Source: Clostridia bacterium (GTDB taxonomy: Bacteria; Bacillota; Clostridia; Oscillospirales; CAG-272). From it: a stretch of 64,000 nucleotides of DNA. The notes beneath the pieces are model-generated. The model was not told the DNA's origin. It was given only the letters and a program-made list of their open reading frames with translations, and made no database searches. Each line of letters starts with the position of its first letter. Within the stretch, counting starts at the first letter, position 1. This document shows positions 2,721 through 51,474 of the stretch, one piece after another. The stretch is from NCBI GenBank assembly GCA_017504995.1, contig JAFVQC010000048.1, forward strand, positions 58,946 through 122,945, read 5' to 3'. Position numbers and translations under genes: made by a program.

Positions 2721-2737
2721 GAATGCGAGGACGCATG

Positions 2738-34767: not shown

Positions 34768-35766
34768 ATGGCACATTTTGAAGGTTATGAGAGACGCGAG
34801 GCGAAGATCCTTGCTGTCCTGAAGGAATACGGCATCTCCTCCATCGACGAGTGCAAGGAGATCTGCACCGCAAAGGGAATCGACCCCTACAAGATCGTAG
34901 AGGAGACCCAGCCCATCGCGTTTGAGAACGCAAAGTGGGCGTACACCGTCGGCGCGGCGATCGCAATCAAGAAGGGTTGCGTGAAGGCTGCTGACGCCGC
35001 AGCCGCAATCGGTATCGGTCTGCAGGCGTTCTGTATCCCCGGATCGGTTGCAGAAAACCGTAAGGTTGGTCTGGGCCACGGAAATCTGGGCGCAATGCTG
35101 CTGTCCGAGGAGACCGAGTGCTTCTGTTTCCTGGCAGGTCACGAGTCCTTCGCGGCTGCCGAGGGCGCAATCAAGATCGCGCTCAACGCAAACAAGGTGC
35201 GTGTAAAGCCCCTGCGCGTGATTTTGAACGGTCTTGGTAAAGACGCCGCTATGATCATTTCCAGAATCAACGGCTTTACCTACGTGCAGACCGAGTTTGA
35301 TCCCTATACCGAGGAGGTTAAGGTGATCAAGGAGACCGCGTACTCCAACGGTGACAGAGCAAAGGTCAAGTGCTACGGCTCCGATAGCGTGCCCGAGGGC
35401 GTTGCGATCATGAGACTGGAAAACGTTGGCGTATCCATCACGGGTAACTCCACCAACCCCACCCGCTTCCAGCACCCCGTTGCAGGCACCTACAAGAAGT
35501 GGGCAATCGAGAACGGCAAGAGCTACTTCTCCGTAGCGTCGGGCGGCGGTACGGGACGTACCCTGCACCCCGATAACATGGCGGCAGGCCCTGCTTCCTA
35601 CGGTATGACCGATACCCTCGGAAGAATGCACGGCGACGCGCAGTTCGCGGGATCTTCCTCCGTTCCAGCTCACGTAGAGATGATGGGACTTATCGGCGCA
35701 GGTAACAACCCCATGGTGGGAATGACGGTAGCAGTAGCCGTAGCGATTGAGGAAGCAAGCAAATAA
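34768..35766 (+). CDS. GGGtGRT family protein (uncharacterised)
   Basis: 332 aa containing the eponymous ASGGGTGRTL motif. Its last 30 codons are duplicated at 48605-48697. Confidence 0.75.
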   Translation: MAHFEGYERREAKILAVLKEYGISSIDECKEICTAKGIDPYKIVEETQPIAFENAKWAYTVGAAIAIKKGCVKAADAAAAIGIGLQAFCIPGSVAENRKVGLGHGNLGAMLLSEETECFCFLAGHESFAAAEGAIKIALNANKVRVKPLRVILNGLGKDAAMIISRINGFTYVQTEFDPYTEEVKVIKETAYSNGDRAKVKCYGSDSVPEGVAIMRLENVGVSITGNSTNPTRFQHPVAGTYKKWAIENGKSYFSVASGGGTGRTLHPDNMAAGPASYGMTDTLGRMHGDAQFAGSSSVPAHVEMMGLIGAGNNPMVGMTVAVAVAIEEASK

Positions 35767-35902
35767 TCCTTGCGGCGTAAGGCTTTTTGAGACTTTCTTG
35801 ATTTCAAGGAATCATTGAAAAAGATCTTTAGCTGAAAATCACAAATAAAAAGTTGGACACATCATTTACGTGTTTTTGCACGATGATGTGTCCAATATTT
35901 TA
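35673..35902 (+). repeat. left direct repeat (attL region) of the island
   Basis: Aligns to 48604-48848. It covers 30 codons plus the stop, the block TTGCGGCGTAAGGCTTTTTGA and a GGACACATC-stem terminator. The middle part is divergent. Confidence 0.85.
35853..35902 (+). terminator. terminator downstream of the GGGtGRT gene (island-side copy)
   Basis: TTGGACACATCAT (35853-35865) / ATGATGTGTCCAA (35883-35895) followed by TATTTTA. Confidence 0.7.
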
Positions 35903-35976
35903 TATATCAAAATTCAAACAAAAAATTAAAACAGTAAATCAAAAAAGAATTTAGTATCATATAAGTGCTTCAACAA

Positions 35977-37653
35977 TTATTTTTTCCATATTTGTAAAGC
36001 ATAGGAAGCAAACTCTTGTTGACGCGTTTCAATTTCCACTGCAGTCCAAGCAAGACAATTCGCTAAAGAAGGATTCGGCTCAATTTTAGATTCCTCATAT
36101 CGTTCTTTTTTGCTTTCAAACATTCTATTGGAGATTTCTCTATTAAAAGCTCCACTTAAAAGTGCTAGGTTCCCCAATCTCCAAAGATATGTTTCGTGAA
36201 CATCATCATCCACCTGCCAAATCGAATTGTCCTCCGGCATAATATGTTCAATGTGTACTTCAGTATTATCAATATTTATTTCATTGGAGGAGTCTAAAAA
36301 TTTATGAACCTTTCGAAGAATATACCGAATAGGCTCCTTTGCCGTTTTTGATCCACTCCAAATCTTGAACATATCATAAAATTCTTGATCTCCAACCATT
36401 TCATGCTTAATGCGCGCAATAATTAATTCTTTAGTACTTAATACTCCGTCATAAATTTCTTTAGCGATCGTTGCAAAAATTACTTCTGCCTTGTTTGCAA
36501 CTTTACCGCAAATGGTAAAGTTACGGAACACATAGACCTCAATCGTTTGAATAACTTCACGGATTTCTTGTTCATTAAATTCAGATGGCGCTTGTTTAAT
36601 TGCAAGAACTACGGGATAAAAAGTACTTGCTTTAAGCATTTTCAATGCCTTTAAGCTGTTAATTAATTGTATGTCGCTAAAACCAACATTATCGTCAGGA
36701 GCAGAAATATCATGATAGCACTGCGCGCACGAAGCTAGGTTCCTAAGGAACTCCTTGCTTGCTCTAGGGCTAGAAATAATTTTGCTAATACTTTTATACA
36801 AACTTTTTTCTCGAGTAAATGCTTGTGTCGCATTCCAATAATGACGAATGTACTTCGTGGGGTCTGCCTGATCTAATGTATTAATCATTGAATTCCAAAG
36901 ATTTTGTGCCGAAATAATATCCTGCGTTTGACTAAACACAAAATTTTTCAACAAATCAGCAGTTTCCAAATCTTTGCCTCGCGCGTTAAGCGTTTCAAAA
37001 ATAACAAACGCCTCCTCTAATTTTGTGGCCTCCATATACAGAACGCTAAATCGTTTAGTAAATGTATCATAATATTCATCTAAAACGTCCAGTTTGTCCT
37101 CCACATCTATAGGTTGATCCATCTTCTCTTTAATACGCTCATAGAAATACACATATGCTTTTCGAAGTCTTTCGTGCGATTTTTTTCTAACCCGCACCGT
37201 ATCTTCAGGAGATCCCAATTGAATCTTCTCACGGAAATACTCATTGTCCAATTCACCAAGATGCAAATGCAACTCGTCATTTGAGTCTGACAGGTATCGC
37301 CCGATGTGAATACTGGAAATATCTGATTTTCTATAGTCCGCTCTTTGTCTTCCCGTATCTCTATAAATCAAGTCGTAAAAGTATTGTAATGTACGCATAA
37401 ATATCATGGAGGTAATAGTTCTTTGCTGACCGTCAATGATATATTTCTTCCGGTTTGTTTCATCGTTATGAACCACAATTTGCCCAAAAAAGTGCTCCGA
37501 ATTTTCGCCACTTATTCTGGTCGCATTAAGGTCATCCCAAAAATCTTCAAGTTCAGCCACTTCCCATGAATATTCGCGTTGGTAATTTGGAATATAGTAG
37601 ATTTTACTCAAAAAAGTATTCATTGGTTCGATTGAGCAATTTTGTAATGCCAT
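35977..37653 (-). CDS. GmrSD-type DUF262/DUF1524 nuclease (putative type IV modification-dependent restriction enzyme)
   Basis: 558 aa. N-terminal IPNYQREYSW and IIDGQQRTITS (DUF262/ParB-like). C-terminal HIEHIMPED..LGNLALLSGAFNREISN (DUF1524 His-Me finger). Confidence 0.85.
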   Translation of the reverse strand: MALQNCSIEPMNTFLSKIYYIPNYQREYSWEVAELEDFWDDLNATRISGENSEHFFGQIVVHNDETNRKKYIIDGQQRTITSMIFMRTLQYFYDLIYRDTGRQRADYRKSDISSIHIGRYLSDSNDELHLHLGELDNEYFREKIQLGSPEDTVRVRKKSHERLRKAYVYFYERIKEKMDQPIDVEDKLDVLDEYYDTFTKRFSVLYMEATKLEEAFVIFETLNARGKDLETADLLKNFVFSQTQDIISAQNLWNSMINTLDQADPTKYIRHYWNATQAFTREKSLYKSISKIISSPRASKEFLRNLASCAQCYHDISAPDDNVGFSDIQLINSLKALKMLKASTFYPVVLAIKQAPSEFNEQEIREVIQTIEVYVFRNFTICGKVANKAEVIFATIAKEIYDGVLSTKELIIARIKHEMVGDQEFYDMFKIWSGSKTAKEPIRYILRKVHKFLDSSNEINIDNTEVHIEHIMPEDNSIWQVDDDVHETYLWRLGNLALLSGAFNREISNRMFESKKERYEESKIEPNPSLANCLAWTAVEIETRQQEFASYALQIWKK

Positions 37654-37873
37654 AGTATTACCTCTTTTCGCAAAGATTACAGTTTAATTGTACCATAATT
37701 CTCATAAAAAAGCAAGACCATTCCAAAACATATATATTTAGAACTTATTAATAATCACCCATTTTACAACCTCTTTGCAAACAATCCCCCTTCCCCTATT
37801 CGCAAATGCATTAAAATACGTTATAATGCTCTTGGCAAAACGATGTATCTGATACCCTTGGGAGGATTTTACC

Positions 37874-38812
37874 ATGAAAAAGCTGAAGATGACCACTCAA
37901 AAACTAACCTTTTCAGAGGGCTGTGAGAAGTATCTGGAACACTGTCGGCAGAGGAATTTGAGGCAAGGAACGATCAATCACTATAAGCAGAGTTACACGC
38001 AGTTCTTTAAATACTTCGATCCTCAAATGCCTATTGAGGACATCGACGAGCAGAGCTATAAGGACTACGTTCTGCACCTCAAGGCGACGCTCAACAATGA
38101 CACAAGTATTAATTCATATCTTCGGGATCTCATAACGACTATTCATTTTTTCATGAACGAAGGCTGGCTTCCCTACTTCAAGATGCAGGCGATCAAGGTT
38201 GATAAAAGCCATATCGAGACCTATAACGAGAATGAACTACAACTGCTTTTGAAGAAACCAAACATCAAAAAATGCTCCTTTACCGAATACCAATGTTGGG
38301 TGATGACGAACTTCTTTTTCAGCACAGGAGTAAGGCAGCGGAGTTTGATGCACATTCAGATCAAGAACATCGATTTTGATAACAACGTCGTCTACGTCAA
38401 CGTGACAAAGAATAGAAAGCCTTTGATCGTTCCTCTCAATCGAACGATGTCTGGTATCCTCTCCGAGTACTTGAAATACAGACAACATAAATCAAATGAC
38501 GACTTTCTCTTCTGCAACGTCTTCGGTCAACAGCTCACGAAAAGCACCTGCTATCATATGCTCTATGAGTACAACAAGCGTCGAGGCGTACAGACCACAG
38601 GCATCCACCGCTACCGCCATACCTTCGCAAAGCAATGGATCCTCAACGGCGGCAACGTCGTCTCCCTCTCAAAGCTTCTCGGACATAGCAGTTTGGAAAT
38701 CACACAGAACTATATCCACCTTCTCACCAGCGATATAGCTGAACAAGTTGACGAATTCAACGTACTGGATAAGTTTTATGGGAAGAAGCGCATTTTCATG
38801 ATTAAAGAATAG
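37874..38812 (+). CDS. tyrosine-type site-specific recombinase/integrase
   Basis: 312 aa. ..STGVRQRSL.. (Arg I), HRYRHTFA (His-x-x-Arg), LGHSS, and the catalytic Tyr in ITQNYIHL. Confidence 0.9.
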   Translation: MKKLKMTTQKLTFSEGCEKYLEHCRQRNLRQGTINHYKQSYTQFFKYFDPQMPIEDIDEQSYKDYVLHLKATLNNDTSINSYLRDLITTIHFFMNEGWLPYFKMQAIKVDKSHIETYNENELQLLLKKPNIKKCSFTEYQCWVMTNFFFSTGVRQRSLMHIQIKNIDFDNNVVYVNVTKNRKPLIVPLNRTMSGILSEYLKYRQHKSNDDFLFCNVFGQQLTKSTCYHMLYEYNKRRGVQTTGIHRYRHTFAKQWILNGGNVVSLSKLLGHSSLEITQNYIHLLTSDIAEQVDEFNVLDKFYGKKRIFMIKE

Positions 38813-38838
38813 CCATTACCTAAATAATGCAAAAAAAC

Positions 38839-38867
38839 TTGAAATATTCATAATTATGTGATATAAT
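38839..38867 (+). promoter_or_regulatory. near-consensus sigma-A promoter driving the structured RNA/leader
   Basis: TTGAAA (38839-38844), 17-nt spacer, TGaTATAAT (38859-38867). Confidence 0.75.
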
Positions 38868-38873
38868 AAAAGA

Positions 38874-39078
38874 GCCAAACTAATCGAATACTTTTTAGAG
38901 CGTATTTTTACTTTAGGGTGACTATACTCTTTTTGTCGTACACATTTTTATAGTAGAATTTGATAAAAACGCAAATTCCGGCTATGAAGATGTGTTAATA
39001 CGCTCTTACAGTAGATTAGTTTGGCGACTATCGGAGTTTGCGTTTTTTAGGCGTTGACTTCGGTTGGCGCCTTTTTTA
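38874..39078 (+). ncRNA. candidate structured RNA or attenuating 5' leader of the 39122-42133 operon (class unknown)
   Basis: 12-bp perfect helix 38874-38885/39014-39025. Coaxial 10-bp helix 38897-38906/38997-39006. A 15-17-bp helix 38965-38981/39031-39047 ends in a U tract. A second terminator hairpin at 39050-39071 is followed by TTTTTTATTTT. Confidence 0.55.
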
Positions 39079-39121
39079 TTTTAATAGTCTCGAAACTTAA
39101 CACACGAAGGAGAACCGCGCG

Positions 39122-40843
39122 ATGAACATTATGTTTATTCTTATCCCATGTATAGCTTGTTTGATTATCGCCATTGTTGGTGTCTTCATAGCAAAAAAGC
39201 AAAATACCAAGTCAAATGAGAAATATGTTGCTTCAGAGAATGCTACTTTCACACATATTGTCACCGCCACCAGCCAAAAGCCCTCCCCCACTGCTTTTGT
39301 GATATGGCTGATAGCCACCATTGTGCTTTTGGGCGGTGCAATAACGCTCGGAATTTTCACATTACTTTGGGGAGACGATTATCAATATTACAAAGAAGAG
39401 TGCGAAGAAATAAAATCAAAAATGAGTTTGGAACAGCCTTTTGATGAGTTTGAAGAGTTTATTGCCGCATGCAAAAGCGAAGAGGTTGAAGATGGTGTCG
39501 ATTTAGCCCCTTATTGGAACAACTATGTATATGCTATGGAGCAGCGTGGATTCGATTACTTACGGTCATCCAATTGGGCTATGGAATCAAGTTCATATTA
39601 TCTGGATTGGTATGACGTGCAAGATATTGCAAAAAGCACAGGATTCATGAAGGATAAGTATGATGAATACGGAGGTTTAGTGTCTGCCAATGCAACAGAC
39701 GCTGCGTACGCAAACGCATTCGAAAACGAGCTTTTGAAGAAGCTCAACAACGTCATCCATCAAAATTTAACAAAGGAGTTAGCAGCAAAAGAGGAATACA
39801 CAGGAGAGGTTCTTCTTATTACCATCGTTGCTTTCTTTATTCCATGCGTTATCTGTCTTGCGCTTGGCATTGTTGGTATCTTTGTAACGATAAAGCAACG
39901 CAAAAAGCTGAAGGAATGGCGCGTGGCTTACGAATCTGCTATACAGGAGCGTGCTACTGCCGAGAATTTGGAAAAGCAACAATATCTTTTGAAGCTGGAA
40001 GAAATGCAGAGAAGAATTGACACTTTGGAGGGAAAAGCTCCGACGGAAGTTACTTCTCAAAGTACAATGCAAGCATCACCAAAACGAGCGGAAGATTTCC
40101 TGCGTACAACCTCGTCATCTCAACAAGATACAAGCGCGCCCACGAGTTCAAATGGCCCGAAACCTATTGAGCAATCGTCGGCGTTTACGCCACATATAGA
40201 TGTGAAAAAAAGAACTTTGCTTCAAACTCTAAGCGACATAGAAAAAGATAAAGAAGGAATTGTTAAATTTCTTTTAGCTGTGGCTTTCTTCCCTTTGAAA
40301 ACGATTCTACGAACCATAGCACTTCCTAATACATGCTCCACACTTGTTAAGGCGGATACAATGGCAAAGGAAATTGCTGCAAAAGGAAACGCATACTTAG
40401 CCGAGGGCTATGAAAACGTGAGACGCCGCGAAGCGAGGGAAGCTTACGAAAAAGCAAATACGACTCAAGAAAAGATGGAGTTTTTCTATTGTTATTTTTC
40501 TTCTGTTGAGAATTGCAAAAAGCCGACGTTGTGCGCATACATTATGACGTATATTGCCGAAAACAGTAGTCTTTTTGATAAAAACGATCCGTTACACTTA
40601 GCTTCCTATTTTGCAGATGATGTTGATAACGCCTTGTACTCATTGCTTGGATTTGATCCGCAGGAAACAACAAATGGTCGACATTACGAACATTTGCTGA
40701 GAGTAAATGACGGAGAGCGGGGCTCTGATAAGTATATTTTACAGTGTCTGATAATCGCGGCAAATGGTAGCGAAGGTGACTCGGTTCCACTCTACAAATA
40801 TGATATTCTTGGGCAAGAGTGCATGTCCGAGGATGCAGAATAA
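39122..40843 (+). CDS. hypothetical membrane protein (3 TM, coiled coil, Ser/Thr/Gln-rich linker); no domain recognised
   Basis: 573 aa. GAAGGAG RBS. TM1 and TM3 are an internal duplication: IPCIACLIIAIVGVFIAKKQ versus IPCVICLALGIVGIFVTIKQ. Confidence 0.75.
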   Translation: MNIMFILIPCIACLIIAIVGVFIAKKQNTKSNEKYVASENATFTHIVTATSQKPSPTAFVIWLIATIVLLGGAITLGIFTLLWGDDYQYYKEECEEIKSKMSLEQPFDEFEEFIAACKSEEVEDGVDLAPYWNNYVYAMEQRGFDYLRSSNWAMESSSYYLDWYDVQDIAKSTGFMKDKYDEYGGLVSANATDAAYANAFENELLKKLNNVIHQNLTKELAAKEEYTGEVLLITIVAFFIPCVICLALGIVGIFVTIKQRKKLKEWRVAYESAIQERATAENLEKQQYLLKLEEMQRRIDTLEGKAPTEVTSQSTMQASPKRAEDFLRTTSSSQQDTSAPTSSNGPKPIEQSSAFTPHIDVKKRTLLQTLSDIEKDKEGIVKFLLAVAFFPLKTILRTIALPNTCSTLVKADTMAKEIAAKGNAYLAEGYENVRRREAREAYEKANTTQEKMEFFYCYFSSVENCKKPTLCAYIMTYIAENSSLFDKNDPLHLASYFADDVDNALYSLLGFDPQETTNGRHYEHLLRVNDGERGSDKYILQCLIIAANGSEGDSVPLYKYDILGQECMSEDAE

Positions 40844-40861
40844 GAATGGAGGGATAATGAT

Positions 40862-42133
40862 ATGACAACAGAAATAAATACAATGATTCAAGAATTGGAT
40901 CGCATTGATGCTCTTTGCCATAAAAAAGATGAGTTGCAAATTGCTTTGGGGCTGGCAGATGGCGAAAAAGACAACAGAGACATAAAAGCCTTAAATAACA
41001 AAAACAAAAAAGCAAGAGCCTTTCAAACGCAGAGAAGCGCTAAACTTCCGCAACTGAATCACGGGATAAATCTTGAAGGCGACAATGCTCCGACTGCTGT
41101 TAAACCGTGGAGGGAGCCTCTCGTGCTTTTTGACAAGAAAGCAAACGCATGGATACCAAAAAAGCACTACAGCAACGACTTGATTCGTGATTTTGTCGTT
41201 TCGTGGTTATTTGTAGCATTCCTTATCGGTTTAATTGTTAGCGCGGTATTATTGGCAACCACAAGCGCCTACTCAGCATATATTATGTTTTGCATTTTCG
41301 GTTTCGGTTTTATAGCTTCCGGTATAGCATGCTTGTTGTTATACAGTTCCATAGAATTCAATGATGAGTGGGTTGAAGGCATAAAACGCAGGCATGTAGG
41401 CAAAGAGCAGTATGACGAAAAGGTGAAGGAATGGGAAGACGCGACCAAAAACTATATTTCTGAATTCTGCAAGAATGATCACGCCAATGTTATAGATACT
41501 CTTATTGCATCGGTAGAAAAATATGACAAGGATTTTCTTGGTATGGTAGCTGATTGTGAGACTACTTTAGAGGCGCTCGACGATGAATATCGTCACCAGC
41601 TTCAAGAAAGCTACTATACGTACGAGGCAGACATAGCTGCAATTAAAGCCGATATCGCGGAAAACGAAAAAGAACTAAGCGCTATCACTTTAATTCATCC
41701 CGACCTGTTCAGAAAGGCTGCAAAAATATCTGCTGTTCTTAAAATGTATCGTGCAGAGTCGTTGCCTGGGGCTATCAATATAGTTTTCGATGATGAACGT
41801 CGTGAAGCCGAGGAAGCAGAACGGAGAGCAGAAGCAGAAAGACGCGAGCGACTCTTGGAGCAACAGATTAGGGAAAACAGGTTTGCGGCAGAAGAAGCAG
41901 CACGTGAAATGCGTCAACACAACGAAGCGATGGAAAAGCAAGCGCAGGAAGCACAAAGAAAAGCGGATCTTCAAAGAGAAAGAGATAATCAAGCCGCAGA
42001 AAATCTGCTGAAGCAGAGAAAAAAGGCTGCCAGCGACAGATGCTATCATTGTGCAAATTCCTCCTGCTCCTTAAGAGTGAGATCGAGCTTCTATAACACC
42101 GGTGATGTTTGTCCTAATTACAGACCAAAGTAA
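40862..42133 (+). CDS. hypothetical membrane protein (2 TM, long Glu/Arg coiled coil, C-terminal Cys cluster); no domain recognised
   Basis: 423 aa. GGAGGG RBS 18 nt after the upstream stop. C-terminus CYHCANSSC..x17..CPNY. Confidence 0.75.
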   Translation: MTTEINTMIQELDRIDALCHKKDELQIALGLADGEKDNRDIKALNNKNKKARAFQTQRSAKLPQLNHGINLEGDNAPTAVKPWREPLVLFDKKANAWIPKKHYSNDLIRDFVVSWLFVAFLIGLIVSAVLLATTSAYSAYIMFCIFGFGFIASGIACLLLYSSIEFNDEWVEGIKRRHVGKEQYDEKVKEWEDATKNYISEFCKNDHANVIDTLIASVEKYDKDFLGMVADCETTLEALDDEYRHQLQESYYTYEADIAAIKADIAENEKELSAITLIHPDLFRKAAKISAVLKMYRAESLPGAINIVFDDERREAEEAERRAEAERRERLLEQQIRENRFAAEEAAREMRQHNEAMEKQAQEAQRKADLQRERDNQAAENLLKQRKKAASDRCYHCANSSCSLRVRSSFYNTGDVCPNYRPK

Positions 42134-42231
42134 AAGCAAACGATTTACATAAAAAACATTTACAAAACAATGTGAATTTTGAAAAGGGATTTTGACTTCT
42201 TACTTAAAAAAGCCAAAGTTCCTTTTCTGTT

Positions 42232-42942
42232 TTAAATTTGTTTGGTATGATCTTTAAGCTCTCTCTTATACTTATAATAACTATTCCTCGAACACCCACA
42301 AAGTTTGATAACATCGGGATCTTCAAGGCTACCACCGAAGTCTTTGGCGTGTTTCAATATGATAGCCTTACACTCAATAGACTTCTTGGTGGTAAGGGGT
42401 GAGCCTTTGGTAAGACCTATCTGTGTCCCATTCTTTTTAGCTTCACGGATTCCTTGACTGATTCTTGAATGAAGGTCGGTGACTTCTTTTTCGGCTTGGT
42501 CAAAAGCGGCTTTGATCTGTTCCTCTGCCAAAGCTAATATGAAATCATTAATCAATTGGATATTGCCCTTAAAGAAAGCGTCAACTGCTTGATTTCCAGT
42601 GTCGATGCTGACGTTCAGCAGTTTGCTTTTGGTGGCATCGAGAACAGATGTATTTATAAGTGGCTCGTTAAGAAAGACGAGGTTAATGCCACGCTCATAG
42701 AGCATTTTATAATCTTTATAGCCCTCTGCGCTATTACGCGCCATTCGGGAGACACTGTCGAAAACGATGGTGTCTTCCTTTTTTACTTGGGGTATGAATT
42801 TCTCCCAATGTGGACGGTTCTGTGTAGTACCTGTGTAAAATTCTTTGATGATAATTGCATTCGGGTAGATAGCGGTGATATTGGTGATCTGTCGGGCGAT
42901 TTTCTGATGTTGGGTGCTAACGCGGCAATAAGCATAGATCAT
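42232..42942 (-). CDS. small serine recombinase (resolvase/invertase family)
   Basis: MIYAYCRVSTQHQ (nucleophile Ser), ..VFDSVSRMARN.., C-terminal HTH region. Confidence 0.9.
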   Translation of the reverse strand: MIYAYCRVSTQHQKIARQITNITAIYPNAIIIKEFYTGTTQNRPHWEKFIPQVKKEDTIVFDSVSRMARNSAEGYKDYKMLYERGINLVFLNEPLINTSVLDATKSKLLNVSIDTGNQAVDAFFKGNIQLINDFILALAEEQIKAAFDQAEKEVTDLHSRISQGIREAKKNGTQIGLTKGSPLTTKKSIECKAIILKHAKDFGGSLEDPDVIKLCGCSRNSYYKYKRELKDHTKQI

Positions 42943-43110
42943 AATGTGTACTTCCTTTCAGCATTGAAACAAACTAAAGTTTCTTTTGATGCTATCATTA
43001 TGCCGTGTATTTGCTAATTGGGCACGAACTTTCGGTATAACTTTTGCGAACTTTGTTTTGGTGCTGATGTTAAAAAATATAGCCATGGCGATATGCTATA
43101 GCTATATACA

Positions 43111-43126
43111 AAGATAGATCTATCTT
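43111..43126. repeat. perfect 16-bp palindrome AAGATAGATCTATCTT
   Basis: Read directly from the sequence. It lies in the divergent region between the serine recombinase and the Rep-like gene. Confidence 0.9.
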
Positions 43127-43198
43127 AAGCTTTTTATTTCATTCAATTAATTTAGCGCTTTGTTTTGTAATATTATATGGACAAGTATAAAAACTAGT

Positions 43199-43227
43199 GC
43201 TATAATTATATAGGTAACAGTTGCAAA
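43199..43227 (+). promoter_or_regulatory. TATAAT box plus iteron-like motif ATAGGTAACAGTTGCAAA, copy 1
   Basis: TATAAT at 43199-43204. The 18-nt motif at 43210-43227 is identical to 44643-44660. It lies 25 nt upstream of the Rep-like start. Confidence 0.6.
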
Positions 43228-43251
43228 TCAAGACAGATGCGAGGGGCTATT

Positions 43252-44604
43252 ATGATATCGGTAGTGGAAATTGCGAGTAGATTGGTAGATAGAAAAGAAT
43301 ATGAGTTTAGTGTTAATAAGGTGGGCTGGGAACCTAAACGAGCTGAATCTTATACGCTACCGGCATTTCATATAACTGAGAGCAAAGCCAAAGGAGCAGA
43401 GGCAAAGCTTAGAACAAAGTTAAGTAAGGTCTTGGCGTTTATTGATACGGTGAAGCATAAGCGTTTTAAAGGCGGCTGTACCATTATGCCTATTAGTGTA
43501 ACGAACAAGGATAACTTGGCAATCTGGGGCGACAAGATGGGCGTTTCAAGAGCGATTGCTTATATGATAGAAATTGGACTGATAAGTGTCGAGAGTGATA
43601 AATATCAGTTTGGAGCTTATTATGATAAAGATAATAAGAGCAAGTCGTATTACTATTATAAAGAGAACGAGGACAAGGTCAAGGCATATTGTGAAGCGCA
43701 TGGCATTACTATGCACGTGGTTCAGAATAAGGTATATGACATGGCTGAGGTTAAAAGCGTTCCTCTGGCAATGGATAAGTCTATGGTGCGTTTTGCAACG
43801 GGACTTAAGCTGATAAGACCTGAGGACCTGAGCAAGGCGGAGTTTGAGAAGCAATTGACTTTGTGCTTATATGAGAACTACCCGGGCTTGCGGTTTCATA
43901 TCATAAAGGCGAACGAGATCAACGAGAGATATTATAAGGACTATCCGGAATTTCGGATTCGTTTTCAGCCGAATTTTACTTGGTCAGACGATGATCTGTA
44001 TGTAAGTAGGATCGGTATCAGAGCAACGAATTCCATGATCAATGTTAAGAAAGAGGTACGTAAAGAAATATTAAATGTGTATGGCTTGAACTTGGAGCAT
44101 GATATTAATGCTTCAGTGCCGCGTATGACGGCATCTTTGAACGCGGGGCGTTGGATTGATGAGGCGGAAGATATGTACGAGCTCATATTTCGTGTTATGG
44201 AGCCGAATGGCGACTTCAACCATGAAGTGCGTGAAGCAATCAAAAAGCTTCATATGCGAGCTTATTTTGACTCTGGGGACAAGCTTACAGGGCATCATAC
44301 TTGGTTGTCGATGGATCAGAGTGGCATTGATAGAGAGGACGTTTGCGATACTATGAAAGCTTTTCGTGAAGCAATTATAGAAGCTGAGGGCGGTAAGCTT
44401 TATGGGAGTGATATCTTTTACATTGAGTCATGTGTATATCTGATGACGTTATATGATCTGGTTACATCGGGGCATAAGGTGTGGCAGGTTTATGATTGCT
44501 TTTATGCGACGGGGGAAGAAGATCAAGAGTTGTTTGATTTTATGATTTCAAATGGAGTAAAGAGAAATTTTGAAGATTTCTTGTCGGTTTGGTGGAAAGT
44601 ATAG
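43252..44604 (+). CDS. hypothetical protein with an N-terminal HTH-like segment; possible replication initiator
   Basis: 450 aa from the Met at 43252 (GAGGGG RBS). ..MGVSRAIAYMIEIGLI.. is HTH-like. Flanked by repeated motifs and an AT-rich stretch. The functional call rests on context only. Confidence 0.4.
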   Translation: MISVVEIASRLVDRKEYEFSVNKVGWEPKRAESYTLPAFHITESKAKGAEAKLRTKLSKVLAFIDTVKHKRFKGGCTIMPISVTNKDNLAIWGDKMGVSRAIAYMIEIGLISVESDKYQFGAYYDKDNKSKSYYYYKENEDKVKAYCEAHGITMHVVQNKVYDMAEVKSVPLAMDKSMVRFATGLKLIRPEDLSKAEFEKQLTLCLYENYPGLRFHIIKANEINERYYKDYPEFRIRFQPNFTWSDDDLYVSRIGIRATNSMINVKKEVRKEILNVYGLNLEHDINASVPRMTASLNAGRWIDEAEDMYELIFRVMEPNGDFNHEVREAIKKLHMRAYFDSGDKLTGHHTWLSMDQSGIDREDVCDTMKAFREAIIEAEGGKLYGSDIFYIESCVYLMTLYDLVTSGHKVWQVYDCFYATGEEDQELFDFMISNGVKRNFEDFLSVWWKV

Positions 44605-44633
44605 AGATAAAAAATATAAATAATAAATATAAT

Positions 44634-44745
44634 ATATATACAATAGGTAACAGTTGCAAAAAGTGTGGCGGAAAAGATAAAAAAAGATATTTATAGTGAG
44701 AGAGATAGAAATTATATAATATATACAATAGGTAACAGTTGTAAA
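44634..44745 (+). repeat. two further iteron-like copies (23 nt identical, 85-bp period) in a very AT-rich stretch
   Basis: ATATATACAATAGGTAACAGTTG occurs at 44634-44656 and 44719-44741. Each copy is preceded by a TATAAT-like box. Confidence 0.8.
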
Positions 44746-44780
44746 AAAACAGATAATTCGGGGTGAATTATCTGTTTTTG
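44743..44780. terminator. bidirectional terminator
   Basis: ACAGATAATTC (44749-44759) / GAATTATCTGT (44765-44775), flanked by AAAAAAA and TTTT. Confidence 0.75.
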
Positions 44781-44793
44781 ACTTTATATGGGA

Positions 44794-45123
44794 TTATTTA
44801 TTGGAATAAATAATATTTATGATTTGTTTAAGTGAGTAGTCGTTTTTGATAAGGTCTATGGAATGAATAACATGAGGATATTTGGAAGGATGGGTATATG
44901 AGGTGGTAAGTATTTTAATGAGAGATTTATACGTGTTGATATTATATTTAGAGGATGTGGTGAAGTAGAAATTTAAGAATTTTTGGTAAGTATCTTCAGA
45001 CATGAAGAAATTACAATGGATATTGAGTTGTTGGTAGACGAAGAAGAGGAGATCGAGTTGATTGATAGTTAGGGTATCGATTTGAGTTTGAATGAACGTG
45101 GACGAATAAATTTTACTTTTCAT
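44794..45123 (-). CDS. hypothetical small protein (109 aa), paralog of 45289-45666
   Basis: AT-rich codon usage. It has its own promoter and terminator. Shares DL(L/F)xF(V/F)Y..LN.H.N......FL.. and ..(I/V)IN..Y with its neighbour. Confidence 0.6.
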   Translation of the reverse strand: MKSKIYSSTFIQTQIDTLTINQLDLLFFVYQQLNIHCNFFMSEDTYQKFLNFYFTTSSKYNINTYKSLIKILTTSYTHPSKYPHVIHSIDLIKNDYSLKQIINIIYSNK

Positions 45124-45156
45124 AATATAAAATTCCTTTCATTTAAAATATTTTAT

Positions 45157-45184
45157 ATTATAAAATACAGTTTTATTTTGTAAA
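45157..45184 (-). promoter_or_regulatory. putative promoter of the 109-aa ORF
   Basis: On the minus strand: TTTACA (45184-45179), 16-nt spacer, TATAAT (45162-45157). Confidence 0.5.
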
Positions 45185-45210
45185 ATCTAATCGTTTTACG
45201 AAAAAAGGTC

Positions 45211-45250
45211 GAAAATTGAAAAAGCTGATGATCCATACCGGACCATCAGC
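45211..45250 (-). terminator. intrinsic terminator of the 125-aa ORF
   Basis: Minus strand GCTGATGGTCC..GGATCATCAGC (one mismatch) followed by TTTTTCAATTTTC. Confidence 0.7.
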
Positions 45251-45288
45251 CTTTGTTATTGATATTTTGTGCTATCAATATATCTTAA

Positions 45289-45666
45289 TCAGAATACGTC
45301 GTAGCCGAAAGCGTCTACGTTAGCGTAGTAGTTGTTGATTACTTCATCAATCGTAAATTTCTTTTTGAGCAGTAGCGTTGCAGTCAGCAGACTCATATGG
45401 TCAAAGCAATATTTTGTCAGATTTTCAATCAGTTCCTTTCTAAATGCTTTGTCCTCATGATGCCTGAATGGGTTGCTGTTAAAAGCCTCAAGGAACTCAT
45501 TGAACTTGTCATTGTAGATCATATTTCCGTGCTGGCAGTTCAGCTTATAGAAAAAGATAAATAAGTCGTGTAGCCCGGAGTCACTCATGGTTTCCAGTTC
45601 TTTAATCAATGTTTCTGTTGTTTTGTTAATAGGGGTATTTGTATTTTCAATATTTGCCATAATCAT
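45289..45666 (-). CDS. hypothetical small protein (125 aa), paralog of 44794-45123
   Basis: ORF in the track; no domain recognised. See the paralogy evidence above. Confidence 0.6.
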   Translation of the reverse strand: MIMANIENTNTPINKTTETLIKELETMSDSGLHDLFIFFYKLNCQHGNMIYNDKFNEFLEAFNSNPFRHHEDKAFRKELIENLTKYCFDHMSLLTATLLLKKKFTIDEVINNYYANVDAFGYDVF

Positions 45667-45729
45667 TCTTCTTTCTATCTGTAATCATTAGAACCGCAAC
45701 AGAGCACAAATTATTGCCGTTCGTATAAT

Positions 45730-45867
45730 TTAGCAGATATTTGAAGAATCGGTGGTAGGTAAAAGCACCTCAATAGCAATCCTCGCTCCAAGCCGAAAGG
45801 CATAGACGAAGACCTCACGTTCGTTGATCTCCGTCAGTTTGTCGTAGTAATGATTGAAATAAATGTC
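45730..45867 (-). pseudogene. 5'-truncated gene remnant (45 codons, no start codon)
   Basis: Locally GC-richer patch. The minus frame reads DIYFNHYYDKLTEINEREVFVYAFRLGARIAIEVLLPTTDSSNIC-stop, with an in-frame TAA immediately upstream. Confidence 0.35.
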
Positions 45868-45896
45868 TTAAGCTAATATATTTACATATAAATATA

Positions 45897-45928
45897 AATA
45901 GCTAGGTGCGAAAACACCTAGCTATTTA
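45897..45928 (-). terminator. hairpin terminator after the SIR2-NTPase gene
   Basis: AAATAGCTAGGTG / CACCTAGCTATTT 13-bp stem, 15 nt past the stop codon. Confidence 0.65.
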
Positions 45929-45942
45929 TAAACATATTTTTA

Positions 45943-48210
45943 TCAGATTTGATTTAACAAAAATATTATATGTTTGTTAGAACCATTTGCTTCATTGTTT
46001 GCAATCTCCAGCCATTGTTTGGCTTGATCAATATATTGGAAATTATTCCAAAAATTCTTTAAGTAAATAGCAAATTCAGCATATTTGATAGCGTGAAAAA
46101 TTTTCCTTTTATCGTTATTAAAGCAACTTTCAAGGATTTCCATCGCCTCTATAAGTCCAGATAACGCAATATCGGTCTTTTTATCTTTATTTGCTTCAAA
46201 AAGTATGATGGCACGCGTATTTTTTATACTAAAATTATTTCTTTGCATATTAATTGCTTTGTCAATGTCACGAAAAGCTTCAGAGTAATTCCCATTTAAT
46301 GCTTTATAAAGTGCCCATTGTTGAAGATTATATGCACTAGAATCAGTATTAAATAATCTTTGATATAAGTTGTTAGCATTTTCACCGAATAGTTGCTTCA
46401 TCATGCGCGCATCATATGCTTTTCTTTTAAATATATGATTTTTATATATAACATGTGGTGGTACATTTTCAATGAATTTTTGGATCACCGCCGAATATTC
46501 TCTATTATAAAATTTCATTAACGCAGCAGAGGAATAATATAGAAACATATTCGATCTTAAACTATAGTAATCTTGGTCAGACATATCAGAAGAAAACTCT
46601 AAATCATATTCCCACAAATAGCTCTTTACTTTTCGAACTTCGTTTTGTATATATTCATAATTACTAGTGTTGAAATAAGAAAAAAGCACATCGGTATTAA
46701 GTAATGATCTATTAACAGATAGATACGTCGTTAATGCTACGATTTCAAATCCTATTTGAGATTGTTCTTTTATCCGTTCAAGAATAATCTTTACTTTTTG
46801 AATTGATAATACTTTATAAACATTATCCGCTACAAATTCAAGCATGGAATATTGTTGATTATCATTGTTGTTATAAGAAAAAGTTCTCTTCTTTATGGCT
46901 TTGGGGATCTTATTATATATTCTTTGAGCTTCCTCTAATTTTAATTCGTGTATATTTACACACTCAAAATTGAAGCCTACAAGTTTATGCTTTGATGATT
47001 CAAAAGCATAGTCGTCAGCAAACCCGATTACTTTAAATTTATTTTGTTCCATCAATAGAGCTATAGCGTCGATGTCATCGCAACAATTATCTATAAAAAT
47101 CGTAATGTCCGTATCGTGATATCGGTTTACAAACAATTTCGCTTGCTCGTAGGTAATGCTATTCATAACGACTTTATTGTCAACTATTATTTTTGAAGCT
47201 AACTGCATTAACATTGTTGTTTTTCCCGAAAATGGAATTCCGATGCATAACAAATTTTTAGTTGTTAGATATTTCTCATATGCCAAATTAACGTATTTAG
47301 TTTCATAGGCGTAATTTGCTAATATACAATACCAGTGCGTTTGACCAAGAGAAAAGTAATTTTCTGCAGAAACAACTTCAACTTGGTTTATAGTGGGAAT
47401 TTGATATTCGATTGGTGGTTGAAAAACATTAGATGGTGGTAACACATAATTGTCAAGTTTTTCGTCTATCCACGTTAATAGGCTTTCGGTATCGGCTTCT
47501 ATTACATAACAACCTAGTTCACGAAAATAATTTGCATTCGAATGATTATTATAGCATTGAACCCAGATATTATGCCTCTTTTCTTGAATTACTTTAGATA
47601 TTATACGTTCAACGGCATTGTCATGAAATCCATATCCCATAAACAAAGTAGGAGCTTCAAGGAGTTTGGCATGCATAGTATCAAACAAAGCTCTGTTATC
47701 AACATCTACATTTGCTAATTCGAATTTTCCAAAATATAAGTTGCTTTCATTTTTAACTTCACCATGTAAGGGTATATAAGTTATTATATCTTTATTTTTT
47801 TTACTGGCACCATACCGAGTAATATCATTTAGAAAATATCTTGAACTATTATCTATAACACATTGAATAGTATTATCTATATTAGTAGTTATATACGATT
47901 TAATGGTTATTTTATTTAAAGTATCATATAAAGGATTATACGATGATACTGTATATTTTTCTCTTAAAAAAGATTGAAATAAATCTTTAGATCGCGTAGA
48001 TGCGATATTAGATACTCTTTCCAAGTCACAACTAAAAGATTCGGATATATTGAACATCTTACAGATTTCAGAGCTTAATGCGGTAGCATCAGGTAAAATG
48101 TTTCCATCTTTGTCTGGCAATTTAGAAAAGCCTGCACCTGTAAACAAGTTTATACCATTTTTTAGAGTTTCAATAAAAAGATTTTCATAATCAATAATTG
48201 GTTTCATCAT
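45943..48210 (-). CDS. SIR2-like domain / P-loop NTPase / TPR-like repeat protein (Avs5 / SIR2-STAND-like antiphage candidate)
   Basis: 755 aa. N-terminal SIR2_2-type motifs LFTGAGFSK, YITTNIDN, IPLHGEV, LFMGYGFHDN. Walker A GIPFSGKTTM and Walker B-like ITIFIDNCCDD. Helical TPR-like C-terminus. Confidence 0.75.
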   Translation of the reverse strand: MMKPIIDYENLFIETLKNGINLFTGAGFSKLPDKDGNILPDATALSSEICKMFNISESFSCDLERVSNIASTRSKDLFQSFLREKYTVSSYNPLYDTLNKITIKSYITTNIDNTIQCVIDNSSRYFLNDITRYGASKKNKDIITYIPLHGEVKNESNLYFGKFELANVDVDNRALFDTMHAKLLEAPTLFMGYGFHDNAVERIISKVIQEKRHNIWVQCYNNHSNANYFRELGCYVIEADTESLLTWIDEKLDNYVLPPSNVFQPPIEYQIPTINQVEVVSAENYFSLGQTHWYCILANYAYETKYVNLAYEKYLTTKNLLCIGIPFSGKTTMLMQLASKIIVDNKVVMNSITYEQAKLFVNRYHDTDITIFIDNCCDDIDAIALLMEQNKFKVIGFADDYAFESSKHKLVGFNFECVNIHELKLEEAQRIYNKIPKAIKKRTFSYNNNDNQQYSMLEFVADNVYKVLSIQKVKIILERIKEQSQIGFEIVALTTYLSVNRSLLNTDVLFSYFNTSNYEYIQNEVRKVKSYLWEYDLEFSSDMSDQDYYSLRSNMFLYYSSAALMKFYNREYSAVIQKFIENVPPHVIYKNHIFKRKAYDARMMKQLFGENANNLYQRLFNTDSSAYNLQQWALYKALNGNYSEAFRDIDKAINMQRNNFSIKNTRAIILFEANKDKKTDIALSGLIEAMEILESCFNNDKRKIFHAIKYAEFAIYLKNFWNNFQYIDQAKQWLEIANNEANGSNKHIIFLLNQI

Positions 48211-48604
48211 GCCCTCCGATTGAAAGATTATAATTAATTATAATTAAAATATTATAATTAAAATGTTGTAATATAATTATACCATTTTTTTCGACATTAT
48301 TCAACTGTTTTTTGCTTTTATTTCTATTGTTTGAGTGTTTTGAAACATTCCGCAGTTTATTTAAAGTACGTTATTGCCCCTACAATCTACGTTATTAACT
48401 GATTGGTTAGCAAAAAAGTCGCAAATAAACTTCCTCCAAAGCCGTGTACGAAAGCCTAAAAACACGATATAATGCATTCAGCAAAACTTAATATGATGTG
48501 TTCGACGTAATGGATTTTGCAATGCAATTATATCAAAAGGCTTATATTTCAAGGCTTTGGGCGGCAGCTATTCACCCCGAAGCTATAGTTAAAGCTCCTG
48601 AAGC

Positions 48605-48697
48605 GTAGAGATGATGGGACTCATCGGCGCAGGTAACAACCCCATGGTCGGTATGACTGTAGCGGTTGCGGTTGCGATCGAAGAGGCAAGCAAATAA
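48605..48697 (+). pseudogene. orphan 3' fragment (30 codons plus stop) of the GGGtGRT gene
   Basis: Encodes VEMMGLIGAGNNPMVGMTVAVAVAIEEASK, identical to the end of 34768-35766. An in-frame TGA lies at 48599-48601. Confidence 0.85.
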
Positions 48698-48728
48698 GTC
48701 TTGCGGCGTAAGGCTTTTTGAACGATTC

Positions 48729-48776
48729 GTAGGGGCGAACTGCGTTCGCCCGCGGGCGTTCACAGAACGCCCCTAC
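48729..48776. repeat. GTAGGG-family palindromic element
   Basis: GTAGGGGCG..CGCCCCTAC outer stem enclosing two inner hairpins (GCGAACTGCGTTCGC; GGGCGTTCACAGAACGCCC). Confidence 0.8.
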
Positions 48777-48798
48777 AAACAAAATAAATAAAAAAGTT

Positions 48799-48848
48799 GG
48801 ACACATCATTTTCGCGTTTTGCGAGAGGATGTGTCCGATATTTTTATG
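48799..48848 (+). terminator. terminator (host-side copy) after the orphan gene fragment
   Basis: GGACACATC (48799-48807) / GATGTGTCC (48828-48836) followed by GATATTTTTAT. Confidence 0.65.
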
Positions 48849-48901
48849 TATAAGACGTGATCAACAAAAAGCAGAGCAGAAGTATATGTCAGAAGAATGG
48901 T

Positions 48902-49846: not shown

Positions 49847-49963
49847 AGTTCCTCCATATAACTTTTGAGTTATGAAAATCATATCCGAATATGTATTTGA
49901 TTATATCACGTTTGCGTGATATAATCAATAGGAAATCAAATTTTTTCTTGAAAGGAACGAAAA

Positions 49964-51343: not shown

Positions 51344-51474
51344 GTTGTTATTCGGATTGTTGTTAAAATATATATCCGATATTTTTGAAATCCGAAAATT
51401 TGTATCTTCCTCCTCTTGTTTTTTCGTCCGAATTATGCTATAATAAATCGATTCTAAATGACAAAGGAGCAGAT

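Follow-up and report, generated by a model that had tools for sequence, protein, structure and literature searches.

An integrative island at the 3' end of a GGGtGRT gene and its family in mostly uncultured gut Clostridia

The window analysed is a 64-kb stretch of DNA in which an intact GGGtGRT gene is followed by an AT-rich island and then by a LysR-fumarase flank (Table 1). GC content outside the island is about 0.52 on average; from a level of about 0.55 it drops to 0.27-0.43 between 35790 and 48600. In 500-nt windows it steps at the left edge from 0.57 (35250-35749) to 0.34 (35750-36249), stays at 0.26-0.45 until about 48600 and returns to only 0.40-0.49 on the right, since the LysR-fumarase flank is itself GC-poor; values of at least 0.52 are reached from about 51750. 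The abrupt switch that the initial annotation had described near 35766 and 48600 was confirmed by this sliding-window calculation.

The island is flanked by a direct repeat of 118 nt with 89% identity (35673-35790 and 48604-48721, offset 12,931). A second repeat block, corresponding to the terminator hairpin, follows at an offset of 12,943 (35843-35901 and 48786-48844). The shift in offset is due to a 54-nt GC-rich palindrome in the host copy (48726-48779), whose place is taken by an AT-rich spacer in the element copy. The two hairpins fold strongly (z = -7.3 and -7.7). The 17-mer GGTAACAACCCCATGGT occurs twice in the 64 kb, both times in the repeat copies, with 0.06 occurrences expected. The duplication at 12,931 bp proposed earlier was recovered, including the repeated hairpin, and alignment agreed with its description as the last 30 codons, a post-stop block and a stem terminator. 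The island, taken as the 12,931 bp between the repeats, is supported by these sequence comparisons as an insertion in the tail of the GGGtGRT gene.

Table 1. Features of the island and its target site (positions in the 64-kb window).
Feature	Position	Strand	Evidence or remark
GGGtGRT target gene	34768..35766	+	Pfam PF14057 E 2e-191, full length; intact
attL homology block: last 30 codons, stop, small post-stop hairpin (35768-35782)	35673..35790	+	89% to 48604-48721
Left edge of att homology, GAGATGATGGG; twin copy 48608-48618	35677..35687	+	Homology edge in attR remnants
Element copy of the GGACACATCAT stem terminator hairpin (P' arm)	35845..35903		Inverted repeat I6; -48.8 kcal/mol, z -7.65
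Cargo slot 1: GmrSD-type type IV restriction gene 35977-37653 (minus strand)	35913..37860		Pfam GmrSD_N + GmrSD_C; PADLOC HEC-06
Tyrosine integrase, 312 aa	37874..38812	+	Pfam Phage_integrase E 8e-31 and SAM-like N-terminal domain; full-length ORF
Conserved non-coding segment after int, terminator 39049-39072, borders cargo slot 2	38853..39082		Common to L016, L046, L050
Cargo slot 2: two membrane or coiled-coil proteins, 573 aa and 423 aa	39122..42133	+	No significant family match
Small serine recombinase, resolvase/invertase type, 236 aa	42232..42942	-	Pfam Resolvase E 7e-19; PHROG DNA invertase E 1e-30
Promoter-like unit, TATAAT ... ATAGGTAACAGTTGCAAA, first of three copies	43187..43229	+	Repeat family D2
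U455, 455 aa, putative replicase with family-A-polymerase-like fold	43237..44604	+	AF2 model, Foldseek, motifs
Two small conserved ORFs, 109 aa (44794-45123) and 125 aa (45289-45666)	44794..45666	-	Homologues in many family loci
Cargo slot 3: SIR2 + STAND-NTPase protein, 755 aa	45943..48210	-	Pfam SIR2_2 E 3e-11; weak nSTAND
Right end of element (P arm)	48406..48603		86% identical to L050; also in L018, L047, L064
attR: host 30 codons and stop, post-stop hairpin, palindrome 48726-48779, terminator hairpin 48789-48848	48604..48848	+	Fold -67.7 kcal/mol

Within the island, the integrase, the serine recombinase and the two defence genes named in the initial annotation were found, while its Rep-like gene, U455, has no family match and a polymerase-like fold. 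The first defence protein combines DUF262 (GmrSD_N, E 4e-35) and DUF1524 (GmrSD_C, E 2e-22) and matches PADLOC HEC-06 over its full length (E 2e-151). It does lie between attL and the integrase as noted before, but as a 1.95-kb cargo insertion of this variant: in most relatives int starts about 45 nt after the hairpin, the segment is missing from L016, L015 and L019, and contigs joining 35911 to 37867 were present in runs X1, X3 and X4. For the two proteins of slot 2, searches of Pfam, PADLOC, PHROG and NCBIfam yielded no family at a significant level, and the slot is occupied by other genes in L016. In slot 3, the SIR2 domain resembles ThsA (E 7e-5), STAND matches stay below the Pfam cut-off and PADLOC models give no match; from these domains the protein is a candidate NAD-depleting defence protein. 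The 109-aa and 125-aa ORFs had no family match in Pfam, PHROG or NCBIfam.

No sequence-family or profile match was obtained for U455, Pfam, PHROG and NCBIfam included. Its structure was modelled with AF2 (pLDDT 91.8). The best Foldseek matches were Pol I, Taq and apPol, with probabilities of 0.77-0.99 and E values of 4e-3 to 3e-2, at TM scores of only 0.25-0.31 to solved structures; against phage polymerase-like proteins of 400-450 aa, E values went down to 1e-7. Motifs A, B and C match those of E. coli Pol I with equal spacing, and D289, K336 and D420 are invariant, while a profile comparison with the single E. coli Pol I sequence gave no match. U455 was connected with polymerases only through the structural comparison; it is polymerase-like in fold and not a classical Rep. 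Proteins related to U455 are about 450 aa long, form 466 clusters at 50% identity and have no Pfam family. One homologue (40% identity) comes from a phage contig of 24.8 kb that also has genes for terminase, portal and lysis, and another from a 6.5-kb faecal-virome scaffold marked 'UNVERIFIED', beside an integrase and cI-like repressors. The unannotated protein family to which U455 belongs is widespread in these islands, also occurs in small phages and probably represents a family-A-type polymerase of very small size.

Occupied and empty versions of the site were then compared. The GGGtGRT protein was found with 100% identity on 16 metagenome contigs, in four distinct downstream contexts that include an LRR protein, an HTH and ABC set, and LysR-fumarase. 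An empty site, which the initial annotation had proposed to look for in relatives, is present in L001, L007 and L010, where a gene for the identical GGGtGRT protein is followed by the host-type post-stop block, the hairpin and LysR-fumarase. The right repeat copy matches these empty sites and is therefore the displaced host 3' end, nearly identical after the stop codon to L001 and L007. The left copy was found solely in the island, and is therefore the element-borne replacement. attL and attR have no mismatch over 35673-35694. Starting at 35695/35719, attL departs from every empty-site allele at wobble positions. The last ~90 nt of the GGGtGRT gene come from the element, with the gene left intact. 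An assembly artefact was excluded, since L011, which was assembled independently, shows 100% identity across 13.2 kb, both junctions included, and contigs of four public runs span both junctions. Island depth in these runs was about that of the flanks, as for a single copy.

A search with the integrase returned 1607 homologues. Relatives at 66-91% identity adjoin GGGtGRT or its remnant in 49/49 informative species-representative loci: in 46 the integrase relative lies 180-1300 nt 3' of a full gene, and in three more after a 30-codon remnant. In 14 islands of different species, the attR remnant becomes homologous to the host gene at GAGATGATGGG. All remnants start from one codon, at GA(G/A)ATGATGGG. 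Family islands measure about 3.6-16 kb and some form tandem arrays (L046; L018 with L050). The backbone is 94% identical to that of L016, from another species, while the cargo differs, as in a mosaic; the serine recombinase is present in 17 family loci. Within the family, large LRR surface proteins are exchanged along with the defence genes GmrSD, SIR2-STAND and type I RM. By these comparisons the island is one member of a large undescribed family in gut bacteria of the Oscillospiraceae, Acutalibacteraceae and Christensenellaceae, whose backbone, as read from the shared genes, consists of the integrase, the small serine recombinase, U455 and the two small ORFs, with three variable cargo slots.

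Replacement of the gene end is also reflected in host alleles. Alleles encoding the identical protein have a synonymous diversity of 0.0078 over their first 905 nt and of 0.093 over their last 94 nt; between L001 and L002, there are 11 differences in the last 94 nt and 0 in the first 905 nt. This 12-fold silent-diversity excess has the appearance of a mark left by repeated 3'-end replacement.

The locus is best explained, with a probability of roughly 0.85, as a site-specific integrative island that rebuilds the GGGtGRT 3' end and belongs to a family with a U455 backbone. On this reading the tyrosine integrase recombined the element attP with an attB within the last 30 codons of GGGtGRT, and the homology edges suggest that strand exchange takes place at GAGATGATGGG (35677-35687) or immediately to its right. 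The P' arm brings synonymous 30 codons, stop, post-stop hairpin and terminator; since this arm carries its own GGGtGRT 3' end, the host gene is rebuilt at attL and stays intact, while what was originally its 3' end persists untranslated at attR. After excision, U455 may copy the circle and the serine recombinase may resolve multimers; GmrSD and SIR2-STAND, as cargo, may shield the host from phage, and repeated integration and loss would swap the host 3' end and build tandem arrays. Against this reading, neither an excised circle nor a repaired attB of the same strain was recovered from the assembled contigs, no excisionase was recognised and no transfer function (relaxase, packaging) was found in the island.

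A comparable replacement is known in Escherichia coli, where the tyrosine integrases of e14 and phage 21 target the icd 3' end and a synonymous 3' end is brought in; in natural icd alleles, the excess of silent changes is confined to the replaced segment. Both the preserved function of the target gene and the silent excess at its 3' end are shared with the present case. However, those elements are a defective prophage and a prophage of Enterobacteria, respectively, whereas here there are no phage structural genes, the target and the integrase family are others and the host belongs to the Clostridia. A prophage was discarded for the island itself, with no capsid, portal, terminase, tail or lysis families among its ten ORFs in Pfam and PHROGs.

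PICI- and P4-like satellites are small integrase islands with a replication module and anti-phage genes in discrete slots. That the island is such a satellite, which excises, replicates with a phage-derived replicase, is packaged in helper capsids and carries its defence genes in satellite hotspots, is a rather doubtful but serious proposal. The island sizes overlap those of satellites, the backbone pairs an integrase with a replication-type protein that has homologues in the phage contig and the virome scaffold, and the defence cargo sits in discrete slots. However, searches of Pfam and PHROGs detected neither a repressor or small terminase nor genes for capsid-size redirection or packaging, no helper is known, the integrase family has one distant match only in IMG/VR, and the virome scaffold carries its 'UNVERIFIED' mark. 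An IME that borrows the conjugation pore of an ICE or plasmid in the same cell would have the same design as those of Firmicutes, with a lone tyrosine integrase, an undisrupted 3'-end target, accretion in tandem, and cargo with adaptive or defence roles (PMC5704250; PMC12084326). This is unlikely here, as no ORF matches a relaxase or coupling protein in Pfam, PHROGs or NCBIfam and no recognisable oriT was found, and U455, the one conserved protein of large size and unknown function, has a polymerase-like fold and not that of a relaxase.

Two further explanations deny mobility. Fixation of a decayed, immobile remnant in the lineage would agree with the absence of attP or attB junctions in the Logan contigs of four runs (k=31), which break inside the shared core, and with the fact that no excisionase was recognised among the island ORFs. 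It is nevertheless improbable, since the backbone ORFs are all intact, copies are 100% identical across samples while near-identical strains have no island, and the backbone is conserved in another species (L016). Exchange of a non-mobile region by homologous recombination, with GGGtGRT and the downstream ABC gene as anchors, would fit the hypervariability of the region downstream of GGGtGRT even without an integrase. Such exchange is hardly credible given the precise and conserved repeat edges, with remnants starting from one codon, the intact integrase adjoining the site in every informative locus, and a diversity jump located exactly at the att edge instead of being spread over the gene.

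The site-specific island is of a kind already known, while its target, its family and its polymerase-like backbone gene are new. The earlier statement that 3' ends of protein genes are much less common integration targets than tRNA/tmRNA genes calls for adjustment, as they are not rare in Firmicutes elements and include those of rpsI, rpmG, rplL, guaA and trmE (PMC5704250). The Firmicutes IMEs that use rpsI, rpmG, rplL or guaA are 6-16 kb long, carry adaptive cargo and form tandem arrays (PMC5704250). The island resembles them in size and cargo, in its single tyrosine integrase, in the tandem arrays and in a repeat that holds the end of the target gene, so that integration leaves the target undisrupted; it differs in the relaxase and oriT, neither of which was detected, and in a conserved gene that is polymerase-like. 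Pipolins, integrative elements with a primer-independent family-B DNA polymerase, act as defence-gene platforms (PMC5695915, PMC11551731). Direct repeats, tyrosine recombinase(s), an own polymerase gene (putative in the island) and exchangeable defence cargo are common to both, but the polymerase-like protein of the island is close to family A and not to piPolB, the target is a protein gene and not a tRNA, and the hosts are gut Clostridia; the island was not classed as a pipolin, as Pfam gave no PolB domain and the U455 fold matches family-A polymerases. It is conceivable, as a tentative extension of the structural model, that the islands are the family-A counterpart of pipolins. They would be self-replicating, and their hallmark U455 would be a Pol I/T7-like polymerase of minimal size that has a winged-helix domain at its N terminus and starts synthesis at the three conserved ATAGGTAACAGTTGCAAA units. 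All of them would home to GGGtGRT, and in uncultured gut Oscillospirales they would be a main platform on which genes for defence and surface proteins are exchanged.

For mostly uncultured gut Clostridia, in which genetic tools are few, the island provides a verified element whose ends are defined and for which an empty site and an att core are available. Its integrase, which targets the conserved 3' end of a highly expressed gene, is a candidate chassis for inserting DNA site-specifically into their genomes, and one gene end serves as a family-wide landing pad where defence genes and LRR surface proteins are exchanged.

The promoter-like unit, in which a promoter scan found a TGGACA-17-TATAAT match, flanks U455 in three copies (43187-43229, 44620-44662 and 44705-44747; 3 matches versus 0.03 expected), all of which are also present in L016. 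The conserved segment after int coincides with a depth spike in metagenomes.

Base composition was calculated in 500-nt windows along the 64-kb window. GC content was 0.54–0.57 over the GGGtGRT operon, fell to 0.34 at 35750–36249 and then remained at 0.26–0.45 until about 48600, with an average of about 0.52 in the remainder of the 64-kb window. Both the abrupt AT-rich switch after the GGGtGRT stop, reversed near 48600, and the direct duplication at the switch points with an offset of 12,931, as described in the initial annotation, were recovered. The repeat finder gave a single long direct repeat in the region, 35673–35790 versus 48604–48721 (118 nt, 89% identity, spacing 12,931), and a repeated hairpin at 35847–35876 and 48791–48820. 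The two repeat blocks differ in offset since, in the pairwise alignment, a 54-nt GC-rich palindrome lies between them in the right copy and an AT-rich spacer in the left copy. The left copy (attL) and the right copy (attR) are identical over 35673–35694. A 17-mer from the att core occurred twice in the window, both times in the repeat copies, versus 0.06 occurrences expected, and both hairpins folded far better than shuffled controls (z about −7.5). A third hairpin copy at 51746 was discarded as a chance match inside an ABC-transporter gene. A tRNA or tmRNA target was also rejected, since no such gene was found anywhere in the window.

The GC-rich palindrome (GTAGGGGCGAAC...GAACGCCCCTAC) is located at 48726–48779, between the GGGtGRT stop and the terminator, and a palindrome at the same position was present in four of the compared contigs (L001, L002, L004 and L008). 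It had no further copies within the window. Depth in four gut metagenomes was about 2,000–3,700 at the palindrome vs 50–90 for the flanks, and the paths of the metagenome contigs out of it diverge widely. In these bacteria, it appears to be a REP- or MITE-like unit present in many copies.

Searching for the exact GGGtGRT protein returned 16 contigs. The empty site that the initial annotation had proposed to look for in relatives was found in L001, L007 and L010, where the GGGtGRT gene leads straight into the LysR–fumarase genes without the island. The island was present in L005, L011 and L012, its position was taken by an 824-aa Flg_new/LRR protein in L002, L003 and L006, and by an HTH regulator and ABC genes in L004 and L008. 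Strains with an identical GGGtGRT protein thus have at least four downstream contexts, each leading to the same 586-aa ABC gene. Being GC-poor (0.40–0.49) and missing from L004 and L008, the LysR–fumarase block (48850–51470) may itself have been acquired earlier, as cargo lacking an integrase.

In the gene-end alignment, attR after the stop codon matched the empty-site contigs L001 and L007 almost exactly, palindrome and hairpin included. In contrast, attL was unlike every island-free allele, with its own wobble bases, post-stop spacer and hairpin loop from 35695/35719 onwards. This is the pattern expected when attL joins host left to element right and attR joins element left to host right. 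Att-type repeats delimit the insertion in the 3' end of the gene; the element supplies a replacement end which restores the reading frame, and the original end is displaced.

The locus L011, from a different sample, was 100% identical to the window over 35600–48812, and contigs in four public metagenome runs (X1–X4) spanned both island junctions. Island depths of about 57–89, 19–21, 56–62 and 50–53 were near those of the LysR flank (82–95, 24, 58 and 49) in the four runs, respectively. Therefore, the repeat is not an assembly artefact, a concern raised at the outset, and these samples contain the island as a single chromosomal copy. No attP/attB junctions or excised form were found among the k=31 assembled contigs, but this weighs little because such contigs end within the shared core. 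The simplest explanation for a loose end at 48721 in X4 is that the attL contig was aligned to attR.

The integrase had 1607 homologues at E ≤ 1e-20, and the best 120 clusters were all at least 79% identical. A one-genome-per-species scan gave 51 loci (L014–L064) carrying integrase relatives at 66–91% identity, from Oscillospiraceae, Acutalibacteraceae, Christensenellaceae or unclassified Clostridia of animal and human guts, all of them MAGs except one isolate, Christensenella sp. Marseille-P2438 (LT700187, locus L056), in which a family member is thus available in culture. Using tblastn with the window's proteins, the integrase gene was located on the same strand as a full GGGtGRT gene and 180–1300 nt 3' of it in 46 loci, and after a 30-codon GGGtGRT remnant in three further ones (L050, L052 and L062); the others begin at a contig edge or contain an integrase fragment only. 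Remnant copies, which mark attR sites, were detected in 14 islands, and in 14/14 the remnant starts at one codon, V-E-M-M-G, 30 codons ahead of the stop. Since the end of host homology on the island side is only a few bases away from GA(G/A)ATGATGGG, we place the crossover at or just right of this motif (35677–35687), and from the sequences we infer that it lies in GAGATGATGGG. The L046 locus contains the GGGtGRT gene plus two remnants, and L018 and L050, both on contig JAFTPF010000011.1, together contain a full gene with four remnants; their two different integrases share 88% and 74% identity with that of the window. These arrays are tandem accretion, as known for Firmicutes elements (PMC12084326). 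Only one distant match to the integrase was found in IMG/VR, and the literature search returned no paper linking GGGtGRT to integration. With the att repeats, the empty site and a family-wide target, the integrative island proposed in the initial annotation is real, and its interpretation was essentially right.

The host gene itself also bears a mark. In ten contigs with an identical 332-aa GGGtGRT protein, pairwise nucleotide diversity was 0.0078 in the first 905 nt vs 0.093 in the last 94 nt, and L001 and L002 showed 0/905 differences followed by 11/94. This jump falls at the att edge and is most simply explained by repeated exchange of the gene's 3' end, either as islands are gained and lost or through recombination between tandem att sites. 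The same phenomenon of a swapped 3' end occurs in icd of E. coli with e14 and phage 21, to which the GGGtGRT diversity may be likened.

The gene content of the island and its flanks is listed in the table. No candidate small ORF for an excisionase was found beside the integrase gene or the P arm (the right element end, 48406–48603). Directly 5' of GGGtGRT, a 238-aa gene (34034–34750) shows weak similarity to NifU/IscU in one segment (E 1e-5, well short of the cut-off). Its conservation alongside GGGtGRT in nearly all of the loci examined suggests that the two genes form a unit, possibly tied to iron-sulfur chemistry.

Genes of the island and its flanks (window coordinates)
Feature	Position	Strand	Remarks
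GGGtGRT	34768–35766	+	
GmrSD-type type IV restriction protein	35977–37653	−	PADLOC HEC-06, E 2e-151
Tyrosine integrase	37874–38812	+	
Two membrane or coiled-coil proteins	39122–40843 and 40862–42133	+	No family match
Serine recombinase	42232–42942	−	Resolvase/invertase type, 236 aa
U455	43237–44604	+	455 aa, without family match
Two small ORFs		−	109 and 125 aa
755-aa protein	45943–48210	−	N-terminal SIR2 domain similar to ThsA, weak STAND-NTPase matches
LysR	48902–49882	−	Right flank, host
Fumarase-class lyase	49964–51343	+	Right flank, host
ABC transporter	beyond fumarase-class lyase		Right flank, host

Comparison with L016, from another species (GGGtGRT 97% and integrase 91% identical at the protein level), separated backbone from cargo. 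At the nucleotide level, the P' arm beside attL (35600–35913) was 88% identical, the integrase region (37861–39078) 84%, and 42260–45858, with the serine recombinase, U455 and the two small ORFs, 94%. The GmrSD segment (35913–37860) is missing from L016, and 39079–42259 is exchanged for unrelated genes. In most relatives, the integrase gene begins about 45 nt past the hairpin, and contigs joining 35911 to 37867 were present in runs X1, X3 and X4; thus, the defence gene earlier described as wedged between attL and the integrase is there in the window but as a cargo insertion, and the layout is atypical, most relatives being without it. There are three cargo slots: between attL and the integrase, between the integrase and the recombinase, and between the small ORFs and the P arm, the latter being conserved with L050, L018, L047 and L064. 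Across the family, the backbone block is found in either orientation relative to the integrase (e.g., L024 and L025). Non-backbone ORFs are very diverse, with 158 ORFs forming 141 clusters, the largest including BspA/LRR surface proteins, type I restriction-modification, DNA methyltransferases, subtilases and SPFH proteins. The few housekeeping genes among them probably lie beyond undetected island ends.

The non-coding segment after the integrase (38853–39082, terminator at 39049–39072) is common to distant family members, sometimes inverted, and its depth in metagenomes was 5–15 times that of neighbouring island DNA. In addition, two stretches within and next to the serine recombinase gene, of 387 nt (42354 to 42742) and 173 nt (42789 to 42963), are missing from contigs of X1, X3 and X4 at a depth of 15–21. 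These samples therefore also contain variant islands whose recombinase region is different.

The gene initially annotated as Rep-like is an intact ORF, U455, but no family match was obtained in Pfam, PADLOC, PHROGs, NCBIfam or the PDB (by sequence or by profile), and its predicted fold is polymerase-like instead. It had no homologue in the plasmid collection, and its longer homologues carry no additional Pfam domains. Clustering at 50% gave 466 representatives, and an alignment of 50 diverse members showed eight invariant residues, including D289, K336 and D420. AlphaFold2 performed poorly with an initial shallow alignment (pLDDT 55, with meaningless Foldseek matches) but gave a confident model with the diverse one (mean pLDDT 91.8). 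With Foldseek, the top solved structures were family-A DNA polymerases (M. smegmatis Pol1 POL domain, Taq large fragment and apicoplast apPol), with probability 0.77–0.99, E 4e-3 to 3e-2 and a low global TM (0.25–0.31). Among predicted viral structures, twelve phage proteins of 400–450 aa matched (E 1e-7 to 4e-4), one of them named DNA polymerase. Conserved segments of U455 align with motifs A, B and C of E. coli Pol I (from NC_000913). For motif A, SADYSQIELR corresponds to EHDINASVPR, the D705–R712 spacing being that of D289–R296. For motif B, RRSAKAINFGLIYG in Pol I corresponds to REAIKKLHMRAYFD in U455, where R754/K758/F762/Y766 and R332/K336/M340/F344 have equal helical periodicity, on a predicted helix. 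For motif C, QVHDE corresponds to QVYDC, with D882 matched by D420 at a predicted beta-hairpin. Since hhalign of the U455 profile against the single E. coli Pol I sequence gave no match, the assignment rests on fold and motifs, and U455 is provisionally regarded as a probable small family-A-type polymerase.

A U455 homologue with 40% identity is encoded at 8001–9386 of L070 (a 24.8-kb JGI 3300026549 contig; also in L071), next to phage genes for a terminase, an SPP1-type portal, Mu F, a holin and a CHAP endolysin. This occurrence in a small phage genome suggests that the U455-like family serves as a phage replicase. Another homologue (43% identity) lies in L067 (MT837627.1), a 6.5-kb human faecal-virome scaffold labelled 'UNVERIFIED Bacteriophage sp.', in which it is accompanied by two cI-like HTH genes, a 450-aa tyrosine integrase from a different family and a zinc-ribbon protein. 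The phage-type replicase and the virome match would fit a satellite-like life style of the island, but this is doubtful, as the hallmark genes of satellites were not found in it; prophage hallmark genes were also absent. Transfer by conjugative mobilisation, in line with the IME-like design, is improbable since, unlike in IMEs, no relaxase or oriT was found in the island.

For the integrative island itself, the attP of an excised circle would consist of the right end of the island, GAGATGATGGGACT and the element-type 3' end, and the repaired host junction would carry the attR-type 3' end. In typical members, the integrase gene would be reached by read-through from GGGtGRT, because only the hairpin and a ribosome-binding site separate the two genes. 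U455 would replicate the excised circle, the serine recombinase would resolve multimers, and the cargo would have an anti-phage function.

Many tyrosine-integrase islands in the 3' ends of housekeeping genes leave the gene undisrupted, with rpsI, rpmG, rplL, guaA and trmE as targets (PMC5704250), and the island works likewise. Pipolins (PMC5695915, PMC11551731) are a parallel in combining an integrase, their own polymerase gene and exchangeable defence cargo, but no family-B polymerase was found here. The island belongs to neither group. While the kind of element is ordinary, its novel aspects are the GGGtGRT target, how large and uniform the island family is, the quantifiable trace left in the host gene and the probable small family-A-type polymerase in the backbone.

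A promoter-like unit (TATAAT/TATATA, then ATAGGTAACAGTTGCAAA) flanks U455 in three same-strand copies (43187–43229, 44620–44662 and 44705–44747), the third directly followed by a hairpin with a T-run (44745–44779). L016 has three copies of the unit and L047 two, and they may act as promoters, as operators or as an origin. The stretch 44250–45250, which has 27–34% GC and covers the end of U455, the repeats and the 109-aa ORF, shows an extreme GC skew (up to +0.68).
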